In this document: piece by piece, positions 13,201-20,520 of the stretch
How positions within the stretch are numbered: the first letter of the stretch is position 1
Layout: each line of letters opens with the position of its first letter
NCBI GenBank assembly: GCA_044229975.1
Contig: JBGARZ010000003.1
Span: forward strand, 288,001 to 352,000
DNA from: Polyangiales bacterium
Lineage (GTDB): Bacteria; Myxococcota_A; Polyangia; Polyangiales; Ga0077539
DNA length: 64,000 nucleotides
Direction: 5' to 3'
Translations under genes and position numbers: made by a program
Notes under the pieces: generated by a model
The model's database searches: none
What the model saw: the letters and a program-made list of their open reading frames with translations, nothing else
Told to the model about the DNA's origin: nothing

Positions 13201-14574
13201 TCAGCACTCGATGATGTTCACCGCGAGACCGCCGCGCGCGGTCTCCTTGTACTTGGTGCTCATGTCGGCGCCCGTCTGGCGCATCGTCGCGATGACCTTG
13301 TCGAGCGACACCTTGTGCTTGCCGTCGCCCGCCATCGCGAGCCGCGCGGCGTTGATCGCCTTCACGCTGCCCATCGCGTTGCGCTCGATGCATGGCACCT
13401 GAACCAGGCCCCCGATGGGGTCGCAGGTGAGCCCGAGGTTGTGCTCCATCCCGATCTCCGCGGCGTTTTCCACCTGCTCGGGGGTGCCGCCCATCACCTC
13501 CGCGAGCGCGCCCGCCGCCATGGAGCAGGCGACCCCGACCTCCCCCTGGCAGCCGACCTCGGCCCCCGAGATGGACGCGTTCTTCTTGTAGAGAATCCCG
13601 ATGGCCCCCGCGGTGAGCAGAAACCTCACCACGCCGTCGTCGTCCGCGTTGGGAATGAACCGCCGATAGTAGTGCAGCACCGCCGGGATGATCCCCGCCG
13701 CCCCGTTGGTGGGCGCCGTCACCACGCGACCCCCGCCCGCGTTCTCCTCGTTGACCGCGAGCGCGAAGAGGTTGACCCAGTCCATCGCGATGAGCGGATC
13801 ACTGGCGCCACCCGCAGCGCAACGCAGCCGCCGGTACAGCGCAGGCGCGCGTCGCCGCACCTTCAACCCGCCAGGGAGAATCCCCTCGTGGTCGCACCCT
13901 CGCTGCACGCAGCCCGCCATCACCGCCCAGATCTCCAACAGCCTGCTGCGAACCTCCTCGGCAGGTCGCCACGCGCACTCGTTCTGGAACATCACCGTGC
14001 TCACGGACAATCCCCGGGCGTGGCAGATCTCCAGCAGCGCCTGCCCCGTCTCGAAGGGGTGCGGCATCGCGGCGCGATCGGCCGCGAGGCCCTCGGCGAC
14101 ACCGTCCTGGTTCACCACGAAGCCGCCGCCCACCGAGTAGAACACCCGCGACGCGAGGGTCGCTCCATCCGCCCCAACCGCGGTGAAGCGCATCCCGTTG
14201 GAGTGCAGCGGCAGCGTCTCGCGCCGATGAAACACCAGGTCTCGCTCGGGCTTGAACGCCACCTCATGGCGCCCCAGCAGGCTCAGCCGCCCCGCAGCGC
14301 GCACGGCCTCGACCCTCGCCCCCACGGCCTCCGGATCGACCGCCTCGGGTCTCTCTCCGAGCAGCCCCACGACGACGGCCACGTCGCTGCCGTGCCCCTT
14401 CCCCGTGTGCCCCAGCGAGCCGAAGAGCTCGACCTTCAGACCCGCCACGCGCTCGATCAGCGCGGCGGCGTGGAGCCCTTCGGCGAAGCGCAGCGCGGCT
14501 CGCATCGGTCCGACCGTGTGTGAGCTCGACGGACCGATCCCGATGCTGAACATGTCGAACACGCTGATGGTCAC
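13201..14574 (-). CDS. sdaA: L-serine ammonia-lyase (Fe-S dependent, single chain)
   Basis: [75 protein letters not shown]. Confidence 0.97.
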
Positions 14575-14625
14575 CGGCCGAGCATAGCCCCCTGCGACGG
14601 CGCTCGTCGGTATATGGTCGGGCCC
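14575..14625. promoter_or_regulatory. Bidirectional promoter region of sdaA/nikR with two outward-facing TAnnnT -10 elements
   Basis: TATGCT (minus, 14586-14581) 6 nt before sdaA GTG; TATGGT (plus, 14613-14618) 7 nt before nikR ATG. Confidence 0.55.
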
Positions 14626-15078
14626 ATGGCTGGAGATCTGGTTCGATTCGGGGTCGCGATGGATGGTGACCTCCTGCAACGCTTCGACGAGCACATCGGG
14701 GCCAAGGGCTACGCCAACCGCTCCGAGGCGCTGCGCGACCTCGTGCGCGCCGACCTGGTCAACGCCCACCTCAAGCGCGACGGGCTCGCGGTCGCCACGC
14801 TGACCCTGGTCTATGACCATCACGTCCGCGAGCTCTCCGAGAAGCTCACCGACATGCAGCACGACCTCGGCGAGCACGTCGTCTCGACCCTGCACGTCCA
14901 CCTCGATCACGACCACTGCCTGGAGGTCATCGTGCTGCGCGGCCCGGCGGCCCTCATCCAGTCGGCGGCCAACCGCCTGCTCGCCACCAAGGGGGTCGAG
15001 CACGGGCAGCTCGTCGCGACGGCCCTCCCCGAGCACACGCACCAGCACGCCGACGACCAGCACCACGGCACGCGCTGA
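14626..15078 (+). CDS. nikR: Nickel-responsive transcriptional regulator NikR
   Basis: RHH N-terminus [13 protein letters not shown]...[31 protein letters not shown]. Confidence 0.95.
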
Positions 15079-15208
15079 CGCGTCGACCCTCGGCGCCGAC
15101 ACACAGTGGCACGGCCCCGACGTGTCGGCCGTCGCGCGTCTCGGTCACGCATCGCCCATCGCCACGAGGACGGTGCATGGCACACGCCTTGAGAGCACCA
15201 TCGGGTTC

Positions 15209-18058
15209 ATGAGCTCCTTGCGATCGCCCCACCTCGCGTCCCTGACCGCTTCCGCGCTGTCGGGTCTGCTGTTCGTCGGCTGCGGCGATCCGATGCCTGC
15301 GGCGCCTCCCTCCGATGCGGGCCTCGGAGACGTCCCCGTCGATCGGCCGGTGGAGGTCGACTTCGCCGATCACACCGTCCCTCGCCTCGCTTCGGCGGCG
15401 GAGTTCCAGGCGATCGCGGCCGAGGAGTTTGGCCTGTCGACGGTGAAGTTCATCATCACGGCCTTCAACGACCCCACGGCTCGCAACGGCCGCTTCTACG
15501 ACAGCACGTTCTTCACCCTGCACGACCAGTGGTACTGGTTTCGCCTGCTCAACGGGGCGCGCATCCCCGGCGACTTCGTCGAGCCCGTGCAGGGCCTTCG
15601 CTTCGACACCATCGCGGACATCAACCGCTGGGCCGCGACGCAGCCGGTGCTCCCGCTCGACCTCGCGTTCTACGGCGACCGCCTCTACTCCCCGCGCTTC
15701 TACGACTACGCCTTCGGGGCCACCCGCCGCTTCGGCCTCGCGACCGTCGTCCGCGTCCCGCCCCGCGCGTCCAACCCCGAGCGCTGGGCCTTCGAGCTGG
15801 AGTACAGCGACTCGGTCTCGCACGCCGAGCTGACCATCTTCTTCGACGCGCTGCGTGCCCGCCTCCCCGCCGCCATCGCGAGCGAGCTGCGCTTCCTCAT
15901 CCGCTCGCCCGAGCAGGAGTCCCTGGGTCAGCGCATGGAGGCCGACCACCTCGCCAACTGGGACCGCCTGCTGCGCTACGGCGACATCGTCGTTCCGGGC
16001 GCGCGCGAGGTGTACAGCGAGGGCATCGCCGCGGGCCGACTCCGAACCATCCGCCGCGGAGAGTCCTTCGACACCGTCAACAACAACGACGTGGTGGTGA
16101 TGGAGGCGATCCCTGACGTGCTCCCCGACCTCGCCGCGCTCGTCACGGCGGTGCCGCAGACGCCGCTCGCGCACATCAACCTGCTGGCCCGCAACCGCGC
16201 CATCCCCAACGTCCACGTCGCGGGCATCCTCGAAGACCCGACCATCAACTCACTGGAGCACGGCTACGCGCCGGTGCTGGTCTTCGCCGAGGCGCCCGAC
16301 CGCGTGGTGCTGTCACCCATCACCGAGGCGCAGTACGGGCGTTACCGCGCCCTCGTCGACCTCCCGGCGCGCGTGGTCACGACGCCGCCGGTCGAGACGA
16401 TGCCGTACCTCATCGACCTCACCGCGCGCGACCCCGCCGAGATCGCGACGCTCGCCTCGACCATCGGCGGCAAGTCGTCGGGGATGATCGCCCTCCTGCA
16501 CGCGCCCGACCTCGACCTGCCCGACGCGCCGCACAGCATCACGGTGCGCGCCTACGTCGAGCACTTCGCGCCGATGCGCGCACGCGTCACCGCCGCCCTC
16601 GCCGACGAGGCCCTCGGCAGCGACGCACGCGCCCGACGACTGGTGCTGGAGGGCATGGCCGCCTTCCGTGCGCGCACCGCGGCGGCGGCCGACCTCGCCT
16701 ACGCCAACGCCTTCGTCGCGGCCCGTCCCGCAGGCAACGCGGCGGGCGACTTCGCGCGCGGCAATGGCGTCCGCGGCCTGGTGGAGTCGACGCCCATCGC
16801 CCCTGCAACCCTCGCGGAGATCGACCGCGTGCTCCGCGCGGCCTACGCGACGCTGGCTCCGACGCAGGGCATCCGCTTCCGCTCGTCGTCCAACGTGGAG
16901 GACATCGAGGGCTTCAACGGCGCGGGCCTGTACGAGTCGTACACGGGCTTCCTCGACCCGGTCTTGCAGCCGCGCGCGTCCGACCGCGACAAGACCATCC
17001 AGCGCGCCATCCAGCGCGTGTGGGGATCATACTGGGGCGTCGAGGCCTTCGAAGAGCGCCGCGCCGGCCGCATCGATCACCTCTCAGCCGCGATGGCGGT
17101 CATGGTGCACCCGCGCTTCGACGACGAGCTCGAGCGCGCGACCGGCGTGTGCACCTTCACGCAGCTCCCGCCCAACACCGCGGACGCCGAGGAGCTGGAG
17201 ATCAACACCCAGCCCGGCGCCGAGAGCGTGGCCAACCCCAACCCGGCCCTGCTGCCCGAAGTCGTGCGCGTCTCTCGCACCCGCGGCTCCGACACGCTGC
17301 GCATCACACGCGTTCGCCGCGCGACGCTCTCGCCCGACCGCGACCTCTTCACCGACGACGTCCTTCGCGCGCTCTTCGCAGACACCGCCGCCGTCACGCA
17401 CCGCTGGCTCGAACGCGAGAACACCCCACGCCCCGCCGCCCGGCGCTCGCGCACGCTCACGCTCGACTTCGAGTTTCACGACATGCTGGGCGGCTGGCCC
17501 GCCGTCCGCACGGGACCCGTTCGCCCTGCGCGACTCGTGCTCAAGCAGGCGCGCACCCTCGAACCCGCGCCTCGCGTGACGTCGACCGAGTCGCAGGCGT
17601 GGCCGGTACCGCGCGACATCCTGTCCCGCGCTCGCCGCGTCACGACCCAGACCTGCACCGGCGATGTCACCGCGGGCGTGACCCTCACGGCGACCCTGCT
17701 GCGCGTGCAGACCGACGCCTCGCTCACCCCCGACGTCGGCTTCGCCGCCAACCCCTTCGACGCCTCCCTCACCCTCACCGCCCGCGGCGTCGTCGCGGCC
17801 CTCGGCTGGTCTGCCGACGCCACCTATGCGGCCGACCACACGGCGTTCACCACCACCCGCGACGGAACCTCCCGCGTCTTCGACGTCGCCACCGCATCGC
17901 CCGCGCGGACGGGCCTCGACCGCGCCCGTCTCGACGCCGACGGCACGCTCACCGTCACCCGCGGCGCGCGCACCGTCACAGCCCGCCTGACGTGCACCGA
18001 CGAGCTCCTCTTCGCGACGCCGCGCGACTTCCTGCTCGGCCTCGTGCCGCCGCGGTAG
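15209..18058 (+). CDS. Lipoprotein with phospho-histidine swivel domain and PEP/pyruvate-binding (PPDK-type ATP-grasp) domain
   Basis: Lipobox LLFVGC; PQTPLAHINLLARNRAIPN; IGGKSSGM; RFRSSSNVEDIEGFNGAGLYES; AIQRVWGSYW; MAVMVHP; LDFEF; VLKQAR. Confidence 0.85.
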   Translation: MSSLRSPHLASLTASALSGLLFVGCGDPMPAAPPSDAGLGDVPVDRPVEVDFADHTVPRLASAAEFQAIAAEEFGLSTVKFIITAFNDPTARNGRFYDSTFFTLHDQWYWFRLLNGARIPGDFVEPVQGLRFDTIADINRWAATQPVLPLDLAFYGDRLYSPRFYDYAFGATRRFGLATVVRVPPRASNPERWAFELEYSDSVSHAELTIFFDALRARLPAAIASELRFLIRSPEQESLGQRMEADHLANWDRLLRYGDIVVPGAREVYSEGIAAGRLRTIRRGESFDTVNNNDVVVMEAIPDVLPDLAALVTAVPQTPLAHINLLARNRAIPNVHVAGILEDPTINSLEHGYAPVLVFAEAPDRVVLSPITEAQYGRYRALVDLPARVVTTPPVETMPYLIDLTARDPAEIATLASTIGGKSSGMIALLHAPDLDLPDAPHSITVRAYVEHFAPMRARVTAALADEALGSDARARRLVLEGMAAFRARTAAAADLAYANAFVAARPAGNAAGDFARGNGVRGLVESTPIAPATLAEIDRVLRAAYATLAPTQGIRFRSSSNVEDIEGFNGAGLYESYTGFLDPVLQPRASDRDKTIQRAIQRVWGSYWGVEAFEERRAGRIDHLSAAMAVMVHPRFDDELERATGVCTFTQLPPNTADAEELEINTQPGAESVANPNPALLPEVVRVSRTRGSDTLRITRVRRATLSPDRDLFTDDVLRALFADTAAVTHRWLERENTPRPAARRSRTLTLDFEFHDMLGGWPAVRTGPVRPARLVLKQARTLEPAPRVTSTESQAWPVPRDILSRARRVTTQTCTGDVTAGVTLTATLLRVQTDASLTPDVGFAANPFDASLTLTARGVVAALGWSADATYAADHTAFTTTRDGTSRVFDVATASPARTGLDRARLDADGTLTVTRGARTVTARLTCTDELLFATPRDFLLGLVPPR

Positions 18059-18067
18059 AGCCCCCGC

Positions 18068-19171
18068 TCAGCCGCCCGAGAGCGCCGCGTCCATGGCCCG
18101 CGCGCAACCCCGCGGCGTGGCCCCCGGCGCGCGTCCCAACACCACGAACCCATCGCCGTCCTCATCGACCCGCCCGAGGTCGCTGGTCTGGATGGCGATG
18201 GCGCTCCCGAGGTTCATCAGGTCGACGACGCGGACGAGCCCGACCCGCCCGCGTGGCACTTCACGCAGCGTCTCCGGGTCGACCATCGTGACCCGCATCC
18301 AGGGCGGAACCCGATAGCTCGCCCTGCCCTCGCGACGCGCTTCGTATCCCTGCGAGCTCAGCTCCGTCATGCCGTACTCACCGAGGATGCCCGCCGGCGG
18401 GAGACCGAAGGTCGCCGCGATCATCCCGCGCAGCACCTCGGGGTCGACCTCACGCGACCGCCCCTTGAAGCCCCCGGTGGGCATCGCGACGCTCCCGTTC
18501 GGGAGCCGCCACTGCTTCGCGCCGACGGCATCGAGCAGATGCACGAAGCCGAAGCTCGTCCCCAGCAACGCGACCGGCACGCCATCACCCATCGAGCGAT
18601 CGAAGGCCGCGGCCACCGCCGCGACATCGAGCGCCGCGTCGCGAACCGTCCATGCGTCGTCGAGACGCGCCGTGCCCCGCCTCGCATCCCAGGTCTCGGC
18701 GAAGCGCGCCAACATGAACGACAGCGACGACGCGGGCGCCCCCGACTCCGACTCCGCGAGCAGCACGAAGCGGTACTCGGCTTCGGGCAACAGCCACCGA
18801 CGAGCCGACGCGATCGCGGCCGCCTCGTAGAGATCAGTGCTCGCGAAGGGATGCCGTCCGCGGACCTCCTGGGTGGTCCCGCTCGTCTCGAACACCCGCA
18901 CCGTCTCACGCTCCGGGAAACAGGCGACCCGAACGGTCTTGAATACGTCGGTCGGTAAAGCCGGAACCTCCGCCAACGCCTCGGGCGCCCTCTCGCCAAG
19001 CGTCCGGGCGGCGATGCGCGCGACGACCGGGTTGTGCGCTCGCTGCCACGCGAAGACCGCGAGCCCGAGCGCCTCGACGGCGTCGTCGGTAATCGCCCCC
19101 ATCGGCGTCGTGGCGAGCGAGCGCAGGCGCTCGTGGAGCGCGGTCCCTTCGCGGTCGAGCCACCCGGTCAC
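18068..19171 (-). CDS. LuxE-like acyl-protein synthetase family protein
   Basis: VFAWQRAHNP, PALPTDVFK, FETSGTT, SSLSFM, MPTGGFKGR, EYGMTELSSQGY, AIQTSDLG, LGRAPGATPRGC; GTG overlaps upstream TGA. Confidence 0.87.
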   Translation of the reverse strand: MTGWLDREGTALHERLRSLATTPMGAITDDAVEALGLAVFAWQRAHNPVVARIAARTLGERAPEALAEVPALPTDVFKTVRVACFPERETVRVFETSGTTQEVRGRHPFASTDLYEAAAIASARRWLLPEAEYRFVLLAESESGAPASSLSFMLARFAETWDARRGTARLDDAWTVRDAALDVAAVAAAFDRSMGDGVPVALLGTSFGFVHLLDAVGAKQWRLPNGSVAMPTGGFKGRSREVDPEVLRGMIAATFGLPPAGILGEYGMTELSSQGYEARREGRASYRVPPWMRVTMVDPETLREVPRGRVGLVRVVDLMNLGSAIAIQTSDLGRVDEDGDGFVVLGRAPGATPRGCARAMDAALSGG

Positions 19172-20520
19172 GCGGGCACCTCGATTGCGAGCACGTCGGC
19201 CAGGGTCGTCGCAAAACCCTCGATCTGAGCGTCTGTCATGCACGCAGGCGGCGTGAGCGTCAGAACATCCCCGTCGACGCCGCCCGTGAGCATCACGTAG
19301 CCGCGCTCCAACATGCGGCGGCAGACTGCGAGCGCGCGACGGAGGCCACCCTCCACGGTGATTCCGATCAGCATGCCCGCAAAGGTAAGCCGACGAACGC
19401 CCCCGCCCTGTCGCGCGAGCGCCACCCGCAGCGAGCCCTCCAACGCGGCGGCGCATCTCGCGATCATCGCGCTCGTCTCGGGTCGCTCGAGCACATCCAG
19501 CGACGCCAACGCTGCCGCGCAGGACAGCGGGTTGCCGAGGAAGGTCGACGTGTGAATCGCCTCTCCCACCGACGCGCCCCAGGCAAGCGCAGACTCCTCG
19601 CGAACGATCGCCGCACTCACCGGAACGCCCCCACCCAGCGCCTTCCCGACCACGACGACGTCGGGCTCGCAGCCCATCGCGAGCGACTGGAGCCACGGGC
19701 CGGTGCGCCCGAGCCCGGTGTAGATCTCATCAACGATGAGCAGCGCGCCGCGCTCCTTCGCCACCGCTCCGAGCGCCGAGAGCGCGCCCGCGGCGACCGG
19801 CTCGACGCCACCGCGCCCGAGGATGGGCTCGATCAACACGGCGCCGACGACTCCATCGGCCAGCGCGAGACGGGCGGCCTCCACGGAGCGCTCCAGGTCC
19901 GCGTTCGAGGGATATGGAGCGAAGCGCACGTTGGGATTCAGCTGCCCGGCGAAAGGCTCACGAAAGGCCGACTTGTAGCCGCACTCGGCGAGCGCTCCGT
20001 AGCTGAGCCCGTGGTAACCGCCCTCAAACGCGAGAACACCCGGTCGTCCGGTCGCGAGCCTCGCCGTCTTGAGCGCAGCCTCGACCGAGTCCGCCCCCGA
20101 GATCCCGAGAATCACCCGCGAAGGCCACGGCACCATCGCCGCAAGGCGCGCCTCGACCGCGATCTTCGCCGAAGACGGGTACACGTCTCCGAGGGCGTGG
20201 AGCAGCTTCCCGGCCTGCCGCTGCACCGCCTCGACGACCTCGGGGTGCCCATGACCGAGCAGCGCGACGCCAAAGCCCCCGGTCAGGTCGACGTACCGAT
20301 TGCCATCGGCGTCGATGACGTTGGCGCCCCTTGCCCGCACCCACACGATCGGATCGTGCGAGGCGCCGGTCAGCTCCTCGCGCCGACGGCGACGAGCGGT
20401 GAGCCCAGGGCACTCGACCGCGGCAAGTTTGTCGACGAGCGAGCGCGTGACCTCACCACCTGGTTCGCCGGAGCGAAGCAGCGGAGGGAGGTCACCGTTG
20501 AAAGGGAGGGAGTCGGACAT
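19168..20520 (-). CDS. Class III (PLP) aminotransferase
   Basis: DADGNRYVDLTGGFGVALLGHGHP, SGADSVEAALK, FEGGYHG, IEPILGRGG, DEIYTGLGRTG, PDVVVVGKALGGG, HTSTFLGNP. Confidence 0.93.
   Translation of the reverse strand: MSDSLPFNGDLPPLLRSGEPGGEVTRSLVDKLAAVECPGLTARRRRREELTGASHDPIVWVRARGANVIDADGNRYVDLTGGFGVALLGHGHPEVVEAVQRQAGKLLHALGDVYPSSAKIAVEARLAAMVPWPSRVILGISGADSVEAALKTARLATGRPGVLAFEGGYHGLSYGALAECGYKSAFREPFAGQLNPNVRFAPYPSNADLERSVEAARLALADGVVGAVLIEPILGRGGVEPVAAGALSALGAVAKERGALLIVDEIYTGLGRTGPWLQSLAMGCEPDVVVVGKALGGGVPVSAAIVREESALAWGASVGEAIHTSTFLGNPLSCAAALASLDVLERPETSAMIARCAAALEGSLRVALARQGGGVRRLTFAGMLIGITVEGGLRRALAVCRRMLERGYVMLTGGVDGDVLTLTPPACMTDAQIEGFATTLADVLAIEVPA

Follow-up and report, generated by a model that had tools for sequence, protein, structure and literature searches.

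The 64,000-nucleotide stretch analysed here, the window, comes from a Polyangiales bacterium (assembly GCA_044229975.1, contig JBGARZ010000003.1, positions 288,001 to 352,000 of the forward strand) and carries a gene for a 949-residue protein, P0001. Its lipoprotein signal, together with an ATP-grasp domain that is intact and a swivel histidine that is invariant among the homologs aligned, makes P0001 a probable extracytoplasmic enzyme anchored in the membrane. The protein belongs to a large exported family, within which it represents a subfamily, stand-alone and tailed, from Myxococcota and Acidimicrobiia. In our preferred reading, to which we give about even odds, P0001 is a phosphotransferase that is exported, acts on a glycan or protein of the envelope and is usually fed by a module of VTC and DUF4956 proteins. 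To our knowledge, characterised dikinases operate in the cytoplasm or the plastid, where adenosine triphosphate (ATP) is present. No paper describing an exported dikinase was found in the literature searched, which did not cover subscription journals and supplements, and the parts available of 10.1101/2024.08.28.610084 and PMC3578206 held nothing on the family of P0001.

Domain architecture, export signal and catalytic residues

The 949 codons at 15209-18058 (+) contained no internal stop, and the GC content at third codon positions (GC3) of this frame was 0.93, compared with 0.71 and 0.53 when the reading frame was shifted. A longer open reading frame (ORF) of 1081 residues from 14813, which overlaps nikR, was discarded as the P0001 gene because homologs begin at or near 15209. 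Each sequence motif named in an initial annotation of this DNA was found at its place: LLFVG-C at residues 20-25, the swivel motif PQTPLAHINLLARN at 316-329 (His codon CAC at 16172-16174), GGKS at 420-423, the ATP-grasp motif RSSSNVEDIEGFNGAGLYES at 558-577, VWGS at 604-607, DFEF at 753-756 and KQAR at 779-782.

An AlphaFold model of P0001, built on 113 sequences, had a predicted local distance difference test (pLDDT) score of 91.4 and a predicted template modelling (pTM) score of 0.78. The model runs from an N-terminal domain (residues 52-263, hereafter N-domain) through the swivel His domain (264-384) and the ATP-grasp (397-786) to a beta-rich tail. The order of swivel His, nucleotide-binding domain of the pyruvate phosphate dikinase (PPDK) type and beta-rich tail, as initially annotated, was thus borne out by the model. 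The unknown domain of about 250 residues placed before them is present and proved smaller, about 212 residues following a disordered linker of 26. The features are:

15209..18058, + strand: gene for the exported dikinase-type lipoprotein P0001, 949 residues (uninterrupted translation, homologs, model, coding bias)
15209..15283, + strand: predicted lipoprotein signal peptide ending at Cys25 (codon 15281-15283); lipobox Cys kept in homologs
15284..15361, + strand: disordered Pro/Asp/Gly linker, residues 26-51; pLDDT <50 for residues 21-45, variable among homologs
15362..15997, + strand: novel alpha/beta N-domain, residues 52-263, putative acceptor site (model; conserved K80/H105/Y165/R173/E196/D201)
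15998..16360, + strand: phosphohistidine swivel domain, residues 264-384, with His322 at codon 16172-16174 (structural matches, invariant His)
16397..17566, + strand: water-dikinase-type ATP-grasp, residues 397-786, with K422, R558, S577, E755, Q780 and R782 (Pfam, fold, conservation)
17606..18055, + strand: beta-rich tail found only in this subfamily, residues 800-949; Cys816 and Cys929 are invariant (conservation, model)

Cys25 was conserved as Cys in 116 of 117 aligned rows having a residue at that column, and the lipoprotein signal is therefore a shared feature of the homologs, contrary to the possibility raised initially that homologs would lack signal peptides. Signals were called by a crude script, which accepts a hydrophobic stretch or a lipobox and is not SignalP; it scored 112/121 subfamily proteins and 112/127 wider-family proteins as signal-bearing versus 2/117 cytoplasmic bacterial controls resembling phosphoglucan water dikinase (PWD). 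A hydrophobic signal ending in a lipobox Cys was called in 110 of the 121 subfamily proteins, and no Tat motif was found in any of the 121. The extra domains in 49 long family members scanned were of extracellular types (LTD, fn3, Calx-beta, CarboxypepD_reg and a type IX secretion system (T9SS) tail). On these sequence features, P0001 is very probably lipidated and located outside the cytoplasm.

Long fusions of the dikinase module (among P0143, P0275, P0280, P0290 and P0295-P0304) included a 3,227-residue fn3/Calx-beta protein with two copies. Other fusions were with PF00553 plus PF00457, with PF00884, and with FG-GAP/VCBS repeats in Planctomycetes; we take the three Pfam families to be CBM2, GH11 and sulfatase, respectively.

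The only Pfam match of P0001 was PPDK_N (residues 418-670, E 3e-11), and a PDB sequence search with P0001 alone gave nothing significant. In structural comparisons of the model, residues 264-384 matched phosphohistidine swivel domains (Z 10.5 for enzyme I, 2wqd; Z 8.1 for the PPDK carrier domain, 2fm4). Residues 397-808 matched the ATP-grasp of rifampin phosphotransferase (RPH) with Z 27.7 and a root-mean-square deviation of 2.5 over 289 aligned residues, and Foldseek concurred; the next solved ATP-grasp neighbour was HpeI (9goj, Z 20.4). The pyruvate-binding barrel reported as absent is indeed lacking, with PPDK_N the sole Pfam hit and the model all-beta beyond residue 800, where structural matches of the tail reached Z 8.7 at most. 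Both tail cysteines, Cys816 and Cys929, were Cys in 120/120 at each position; they may form a disulfide, and the pair fits an oxidising compartment.

An alignment of the 121 subfamily proteins showed H322, K422, R558, S577 and R782 in 121/121, E755 in 120/120 and Q780 in 120/121. The intact phosphohistidine of the initial annotation is accordingly invariant, against its own caveat that the His might not be conserved. His322 aligned with the SH/CH motif of phosphoenolpyruvate (PEP) synthase (PPS). A profile of the paralog clade aligned the GGK, RSS and GAGLY.S motifs with K22, R117 and T136 of RPH (numbered after correction for a tag offset), of which K422, R558 and S577 are the equivalents. 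Mutants of these three RPH residues lose activity or resistance, according to the portion available of the study (PMC4844700). The features of the dikinase superfamily, an ATP-grasp with Lys/Arg/Thr-Ser triphosphate ligands and a swivel domain with a conserved His, were both present. Since the catalytic residues are invariant and aligned to essential residues of RPH, the enzyme looks intact, and by this analogy P0001 is predicted with high confidence to be catalytically active.

That P0001 is instead not exported or is catalytically dead, as a scaffold or a mis-called cytoplasmic relative of PEP synthase, could be argued from signals called by motif and a home-made script rather than SignalP, and from the PEP/pyruvate-binding label given by Pfam and the sources. 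The near-universal lipobox Cys set against the controls, the invariant catalytic residues, the missing barrel and a normal PEP synthase encoded elsewhere in the source genome (contig C17) make it extremely improbable.

Comparison with known dikinases

The initial annotation had compared the architecture with that of alpha-glucan water dikinase (GWD) and PWD. The likeness held for the His plus ATP-grasp module, which is PWD-like in order and sequence, and ended at the His domain, the acceptor domain being unrelated. A family profile matched a PWD-like protein bearing CBM20 in one continuous His-linker-ATP-grasp alignment of 150 bits, versus 106 bits for the PEP synthase of the source genome and 80 bits for its RPH-like protein, which is encoded separately on C38. 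Common to P0001 and PWD/GWD1 is the order of acceptor domain, His swivel and C-terminal ATP-grasp, and with PWD it shares the LSH/LAH and RSS.N.ED..G..GAGLY.S motifs. In contrast to PWD/GWD1, P0001 has a lipoprotein signal, and Pfam gave no match to a carbohydrate-binding module (CBM20 or CBM45); its 212-residue acceptor domain is unrelated to the PWD pre-His region and it falls in a separate clade. In GWD1-like proteins the RSS..ED segment is displaced, which is not so in the family of P0001.

GWD1_pHisD (PF22973) did not match P0001, and its two paralogs scored 16 and 15 bits versus a cut-off of 27. Across the family, GWD1_pHisD was matched weakly by 14 of 72 members at E<=0.05 and PEP-utilizers by 1 of 72; a cluster lead to GWD1_pHisD (score 0.77) was rejected by profile comparison. 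In ATP-grasp trees, which were unrooted, with two outgroup rows (one long) and GWD1-like rows in neither, the exported family (support 100/99) and PWD-like proteins (99/96) formed separate clades, with PPS and RPH-like proteins split from both at 95/91. The P0001 subfamily was nested within the exported family. Seven rows had been removed from the first tree for missing motifs.

The catalytic His of potato GWD is His992 (PMC12892837, partial text). In the available parts of two sources, GWD and PWD are treated as eukaryotic starch enzymes, and no exported bacterial form is mentioned (PMC12892837; 10.64898/2026.09.25.754361). Bacterial PWD-like proteins without signal peptides (P0306, P0311-P0429) were also observed, with 1,236 matches from Nitrospirota, Deltaproteobacteria and others; most of those among the matches listed were fused to a PF01261 TIM barrel.

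The N-domain, modelled alone, reached pLDDT 95.5. Its fold search gave a best Z of 4.1, with no Foldseek match at E<=0.001, a result that does not by itself prove a new fold; the PPK1 head domain scored Z 3.4, within noise, and RPH was absent from the structural matches listed, none of which exceeded Z 4.1. Compared with 104 PWD-like pre-His regions, mostly bacterial, it gave hhalign probabilities of 1.1% and 0.1%. The domain is net acidic (22 K+R, 27 D+E). Conservation was counted over 31 subfamily and 129 wider-family proteins: K80 was kept in 31/31 and 119/129, H105 in 31/31 and 127/129, Y165 in 31/31 and 126/129, R173 (as R/K) in 29/31 and R173 in 126/129, E196 in 26/31 and 108/129, and D201 in 26/31 and 116/129. 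These residues make the N-domain a putative acceptor site, its counterpart in RPH being the Arg/Glu/Lys trio.

PEP synthase (TIGR01418; PDB 2ols, 8a8e) and PPDK resemble P0001 in having ATP-grasp and swivel His domains and differ in the reversed domain order, in a TIM barrel that is not in P0001, and in the export signal found only in P0001; the NCBIfam equivalog for PEP synthase scored 30.3 bits on P0001 against a cut-off of 739.75. RPH (PDB 5hv1, 5fbs) and HpeI share the ATP-grasp fold, equivalents of K22/R117/T136 and the lack of a PEP barrel. In RPH, however, the ATP-grasp is followed by the substrate (RIF-binding) domain and a C-terminal His, whereas in P0001 the His precedes the ATP-grasp; RPH is also cytoplasmic. 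Judged by sequence, P0001 appears to work like a PWD and is not a GWD/PWD, PPS, PPDK or RPH, the first because fold searches found no counterpart of its N-domain, which is not related to the acceptor region of PWD.

An RPH-like detoxifying phosphotransferase, acting at the cell surface on a diffusible small molecule such as an antibiotic or aromatic compound, would agree with RPH and HpeI being the nearest solved ATP-grasps and with the readiness of dikinases to exchange acceptor domains (PMC4844700, partial text). We consider this very unlikely: the His domain comes last in RPH, the source genome has its own RPH-like protein, family members are fused to surface-display domains, and the association with DUF4956 described below would be left unexplained.

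Family distribution and co-occurrence with VTC and DUF4956

In a large protein set, the scoring of 7,992 candidates gave 305 relatives of P0001. Identity in the best 120 of the 305 was 40-95%, and in nearly all cases the alignment covered most of the length; those with names came from Myxococcota/Deltaproteobacteria. A genome scan gave 440 related stretches, the best 80 mostly from Myxococcota and Acidimicrobiia; carriers include the cultured Enhygromyxa salina (L066, L087). The wider family comprised 880 cluster representatives (clustering at 50% identity) that matched one paralog at E<=1e-30; 5,060 cluster representatives were reached at E<=0.001, other dikinases included. In a random sample of 301 genomes of this phylum, the exported family was present in 128 and the P0001 subfamily in 41. 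The source genome (G000) has two paralogs of P0001, both with signals: P0122 (L007:8717-10678 (+), contig C33), 653 residues with a lipobox, stand-alone and without the tail, and P0123 on contig C32, inside a VTC-DUF4956 operon. At another locus (L223:10236-12548 (-)), a second, divergent family member stood in tandem with a P0001-type gene.

The operon on C32 (L006:5645-14462 (-)) contains, on the same strand, VTC, DUF4956, two lipoproteins, P0123, DUF2252, DUF2490, a small barrel-like protein and an LTD protein; one lipoprotein is Cys-rich with no assigned family, the other is DUF1554-like, and the N-terminus of the DUF2252 protein is signal-like. A phosphate-porin O/P homolog lies nearby (L006:18158-19558).

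DUF4956 was present in 108/128 family carriers versus 44/173 non-carriers among the 301 genomes. The family, DUF4956 and CotH occurred together in 100 genomes and none of the three in 112; CotH was thus found in 100 of the 108 genomes having both the family and DUF4956. Carriers of the P0001 subfamily had DUF4956 in 41/41 cases and VTC in 40/41, versus 26/41 for GH18, an unrelated secreted family used as control. In the 17 families with known totals, the within-family odds ratio was 15 for DUF4956 (p 6e-7) versus 1.5 for GH18 (p 0.73), p values that overstate the significance since kin are not independent. In Acidimicrobiia/Actinomycetes, DUF4956 was found in 8 of 9 carriers tested versus a base rate of 15/151.

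Physical linkage to DUF4956 was seen in 6/40 paralog-type loci and at the family-gene locus in 23/80 metagenome loci, mostly low-GC and Flavobacteriales-like by their neighbours, with about seven flanking contexts by eye. At one P0001-type locus (L208:6982-16206 (-)), VTC, DUF4956, an intervening gene and the dikinase lie on one strand with the dikinase downstream; the intervening product is HlyD-like in its N-part (by eye) and phytase-like in its C-part, just under the cut-off. CotH, VTC and DUF4956 have been reported as a trio next to the pel loci of Gram-positive bacteria, and the parts available assign the trio no function (10.1101/768473; 10.1101/2024.04.20.589940). In the present system, too, an exported phosphotransferase is found alongside the VTC and DUF4956 families, and the dikinase family co-occurs with all three; the system differs in that the exported enzyme is a His-relay dikinase, none being mentioned in the available text of the pel papers, and in that P0001 lies outside the operon. 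The neighbour clusters scanned showed no link to pel.

Several results weigh against the preferred reading, most of them against its link to VTC/DUF4956. No conserved neighbours of the subfamily gene were found, and the recurrent neighbours scanned were generic (Ser/Thr kinases at 19 loci, histidine kinases at 14). DUF4956 or VTC was found at 0/80 loci L008-L087 and 1/20 loci L208-L227, that is, at 1/100 subfamily loci, and the P0001 gene itself is outside the operon, which is not in the window. Among the 23 DUF4956-bearing metagenome loci, VTC was present at one, a locus-level count. GH18 was associated overall too (odds ratio 5.0), and lineage and genome size therefore inflate raw co-occurrence counts. 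DUF4956 was missing from 20 of the 128 family carriers and, among 30 genomes reached via subfamily loci (3 of which repeat genomes of the 301 sample), was present in 25 and not found in 5. The authors of a study of S. intermedius suggest, in the part available, that polyphosphate (polyP) may stay cytoplasmic, and report that knockouts kept Pel (10.1101/2024.04.20.589940). Finally, the N-domain bears no relation to the acceptor region of PWD.

The most direct exception was a sister clade of five genomes (G304, G456, G457, G481 and G482), among the closest relatives of P0001 at 67-69% identity: three of the DUF4956-negative genomes above plus two checked with the DUF4956 protein of the source genome. 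No DUF4956 match was found in the five, whose completeness was not given, and VTC was found in only one, as a partial match. All five keep the P0001-type gene and a P0122-type paralog; the operon paralog P0123 had no close match in them. This suggests that DUF4956 was truly lost in the clade. Because these five relatives lack a DUF4956 match, the DUF4956-VTC link is strong but not obligatory, and we regard a functional link of P0001 to VTC/DUF4956 as somewhat favoured.

The same clade bears on an explanation independent of VTC/DUF4956, in which an exported dikinase uses scavenged ATP or polyP from lysed prey or biofilm neighbours and the co-occurrence stems from a common lifestyle in which envelope kinases abound. 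The stand-alone gene, the two family genes kept by the five relatives, the co-occurrence of CotH with the family (odds ratio 11.5) and the full set of nucleotide-binding residues agree with it. We nevertheless find it unlikely, given the complete DUF4956 co-occurrence of the subfamily in the random sample, the within-family signal without a GH18 counterpart, the physical DUF4956 linkage repeated in separate lineages, and the presence of the subfamily in Acidimicrobiia, which are not known to us as predators. ATP from lysed prey, the source suggested initially, accordingly gives way as the leading explanation, the subfamily tracking the DUF4956/VTC pair; the five relatives without detectable DUF4956 keep it in consideration.

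CotH also enters a proposal that P0001 acts on phosphate polymers or nucleotides, extending or trimming periplasmic polyP or using it to regenerate ATP for kinases of the CotH/DUF2252 type; H105 would then be a second relay His. H105 is as conserved as H322, CotH accompanies most genomes with the family and DUF4956, DUF2252 and the phosphate-porin homolog lie near paralogs, and the N-domain faintly matches the PPK1 head domain. That match, however, is within noise. Acidic residues outnumber basic ones in the N-domain, the ATP-grasp motif belongs to the water-dikinase type, and CotH was not found in the source genome (93% complete), G119 or G284. The reverse reaction of a water dikinase would also need two anhydride bonds from one. 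Together these points make the proposal distinctly unlikely.

A Cys-rich lipoprotein of about 350 residues without a Pfam match (L006:11955-12995 (-), among others) was present at 26/42 paralog-type loci and usually adjoined the dikinase; apart from L006, these loci are 25 among L088-L127. As the most constant neighbour of the paralog clade, it is a candidate partner or substrate. The P0001 tail and the partner lipoprotein encoded in the paralog operon proved unrelated (probability 0.8%), and an origin of the tail by fusion of that lipoprotein was rejected. A cluster of beta-propeller proteins resembling gluconolactonase/strictosidine synthase (L107:7926-9344 and others) was found at 14/42 paralog-type loci, where the gene often occupies the place of the DUF1554-like gene; some cluster members are alternative-frame ORF calls.

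Proposed reaction and genomic setting

In the preferred reading of an exported phosphotransferase, P0001 would be exported by Sec and anchored by its lipid. A phosphoanhydride donor would bind in the ATP-grasp and, following the chemistry of RPH, PPS and GWD, its beta-phosphate would pass to His322 with release of AMP and Pi. The phosphorylated His domain may then swivel to the N-domain, where R173/E196/K80 could take the role of Arg666/Glu667/Lys670 of RPH, and the phosphate would be passed to a hydroxyl on the acceptor that the N-domain binds, an envelope glycan or, with lower likelihood, a protein. A glycan acceptor is our tentative first choice; a protein is a less likely one, and a small molecule slightly less likely again.

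In most carriers VTC/DUF4956 would probably provide the donor, either polyP or ATP made from it. By analogy with the yeast VTC complex, DUF4956 may export polyP. Whether the donor would be polyP itself or ATP regenerated or exported there, we judge to be about evenly balanced. A broader proposal, that envelope kinases take exported polyP straight into an ATP-grasp and phosphorylate surface glycans via a phosphohistidine relay, is speculative and in our view doubtful; if true, it would provide a general ATP-free route to extracytoplasmic phosphorylation and a bacterial sister of the starch dikinases.

The exported family is large, about nine in ten of the members examined are signal-bearing, its putative acceptor domain is new, and its usual annotation is PEP synthase or hypothetical protein. 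It offers a biochemical handle on the open question of the energy source for extracytoplasmic kinases such as CotH, and the predicted phosphohistidine intermediate permits comparison of ATP and polyP as donors even without the identity of the acceptor. The family is also relevant to how starch dikinases came by their His-before-ATP-grasp layout. This locus contributes the stand-alone tailed subfamily, a controlled co-occurrence test, family-wide putative acceptor residues and a clade in which the link is broken.

A promoter or terminator consensus was sought for the P0001 gene and none was found. nikR (window 14614-15078 (+)) ends 130 bp upstream on the same strand, and a divergent L-serine dehydratase gene (window 13201-15102 (-)) lies nearby. 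A LuxE-like and class-III aminotransferase pair (window 18068-20520 (-)) is convergent with the P0001 gene. The four genes were rejected as a P0001 cluster, as they did not recur at homologous loci; the LuxE-like/aminotransferase pair sits just after a ribosomal protein operon.

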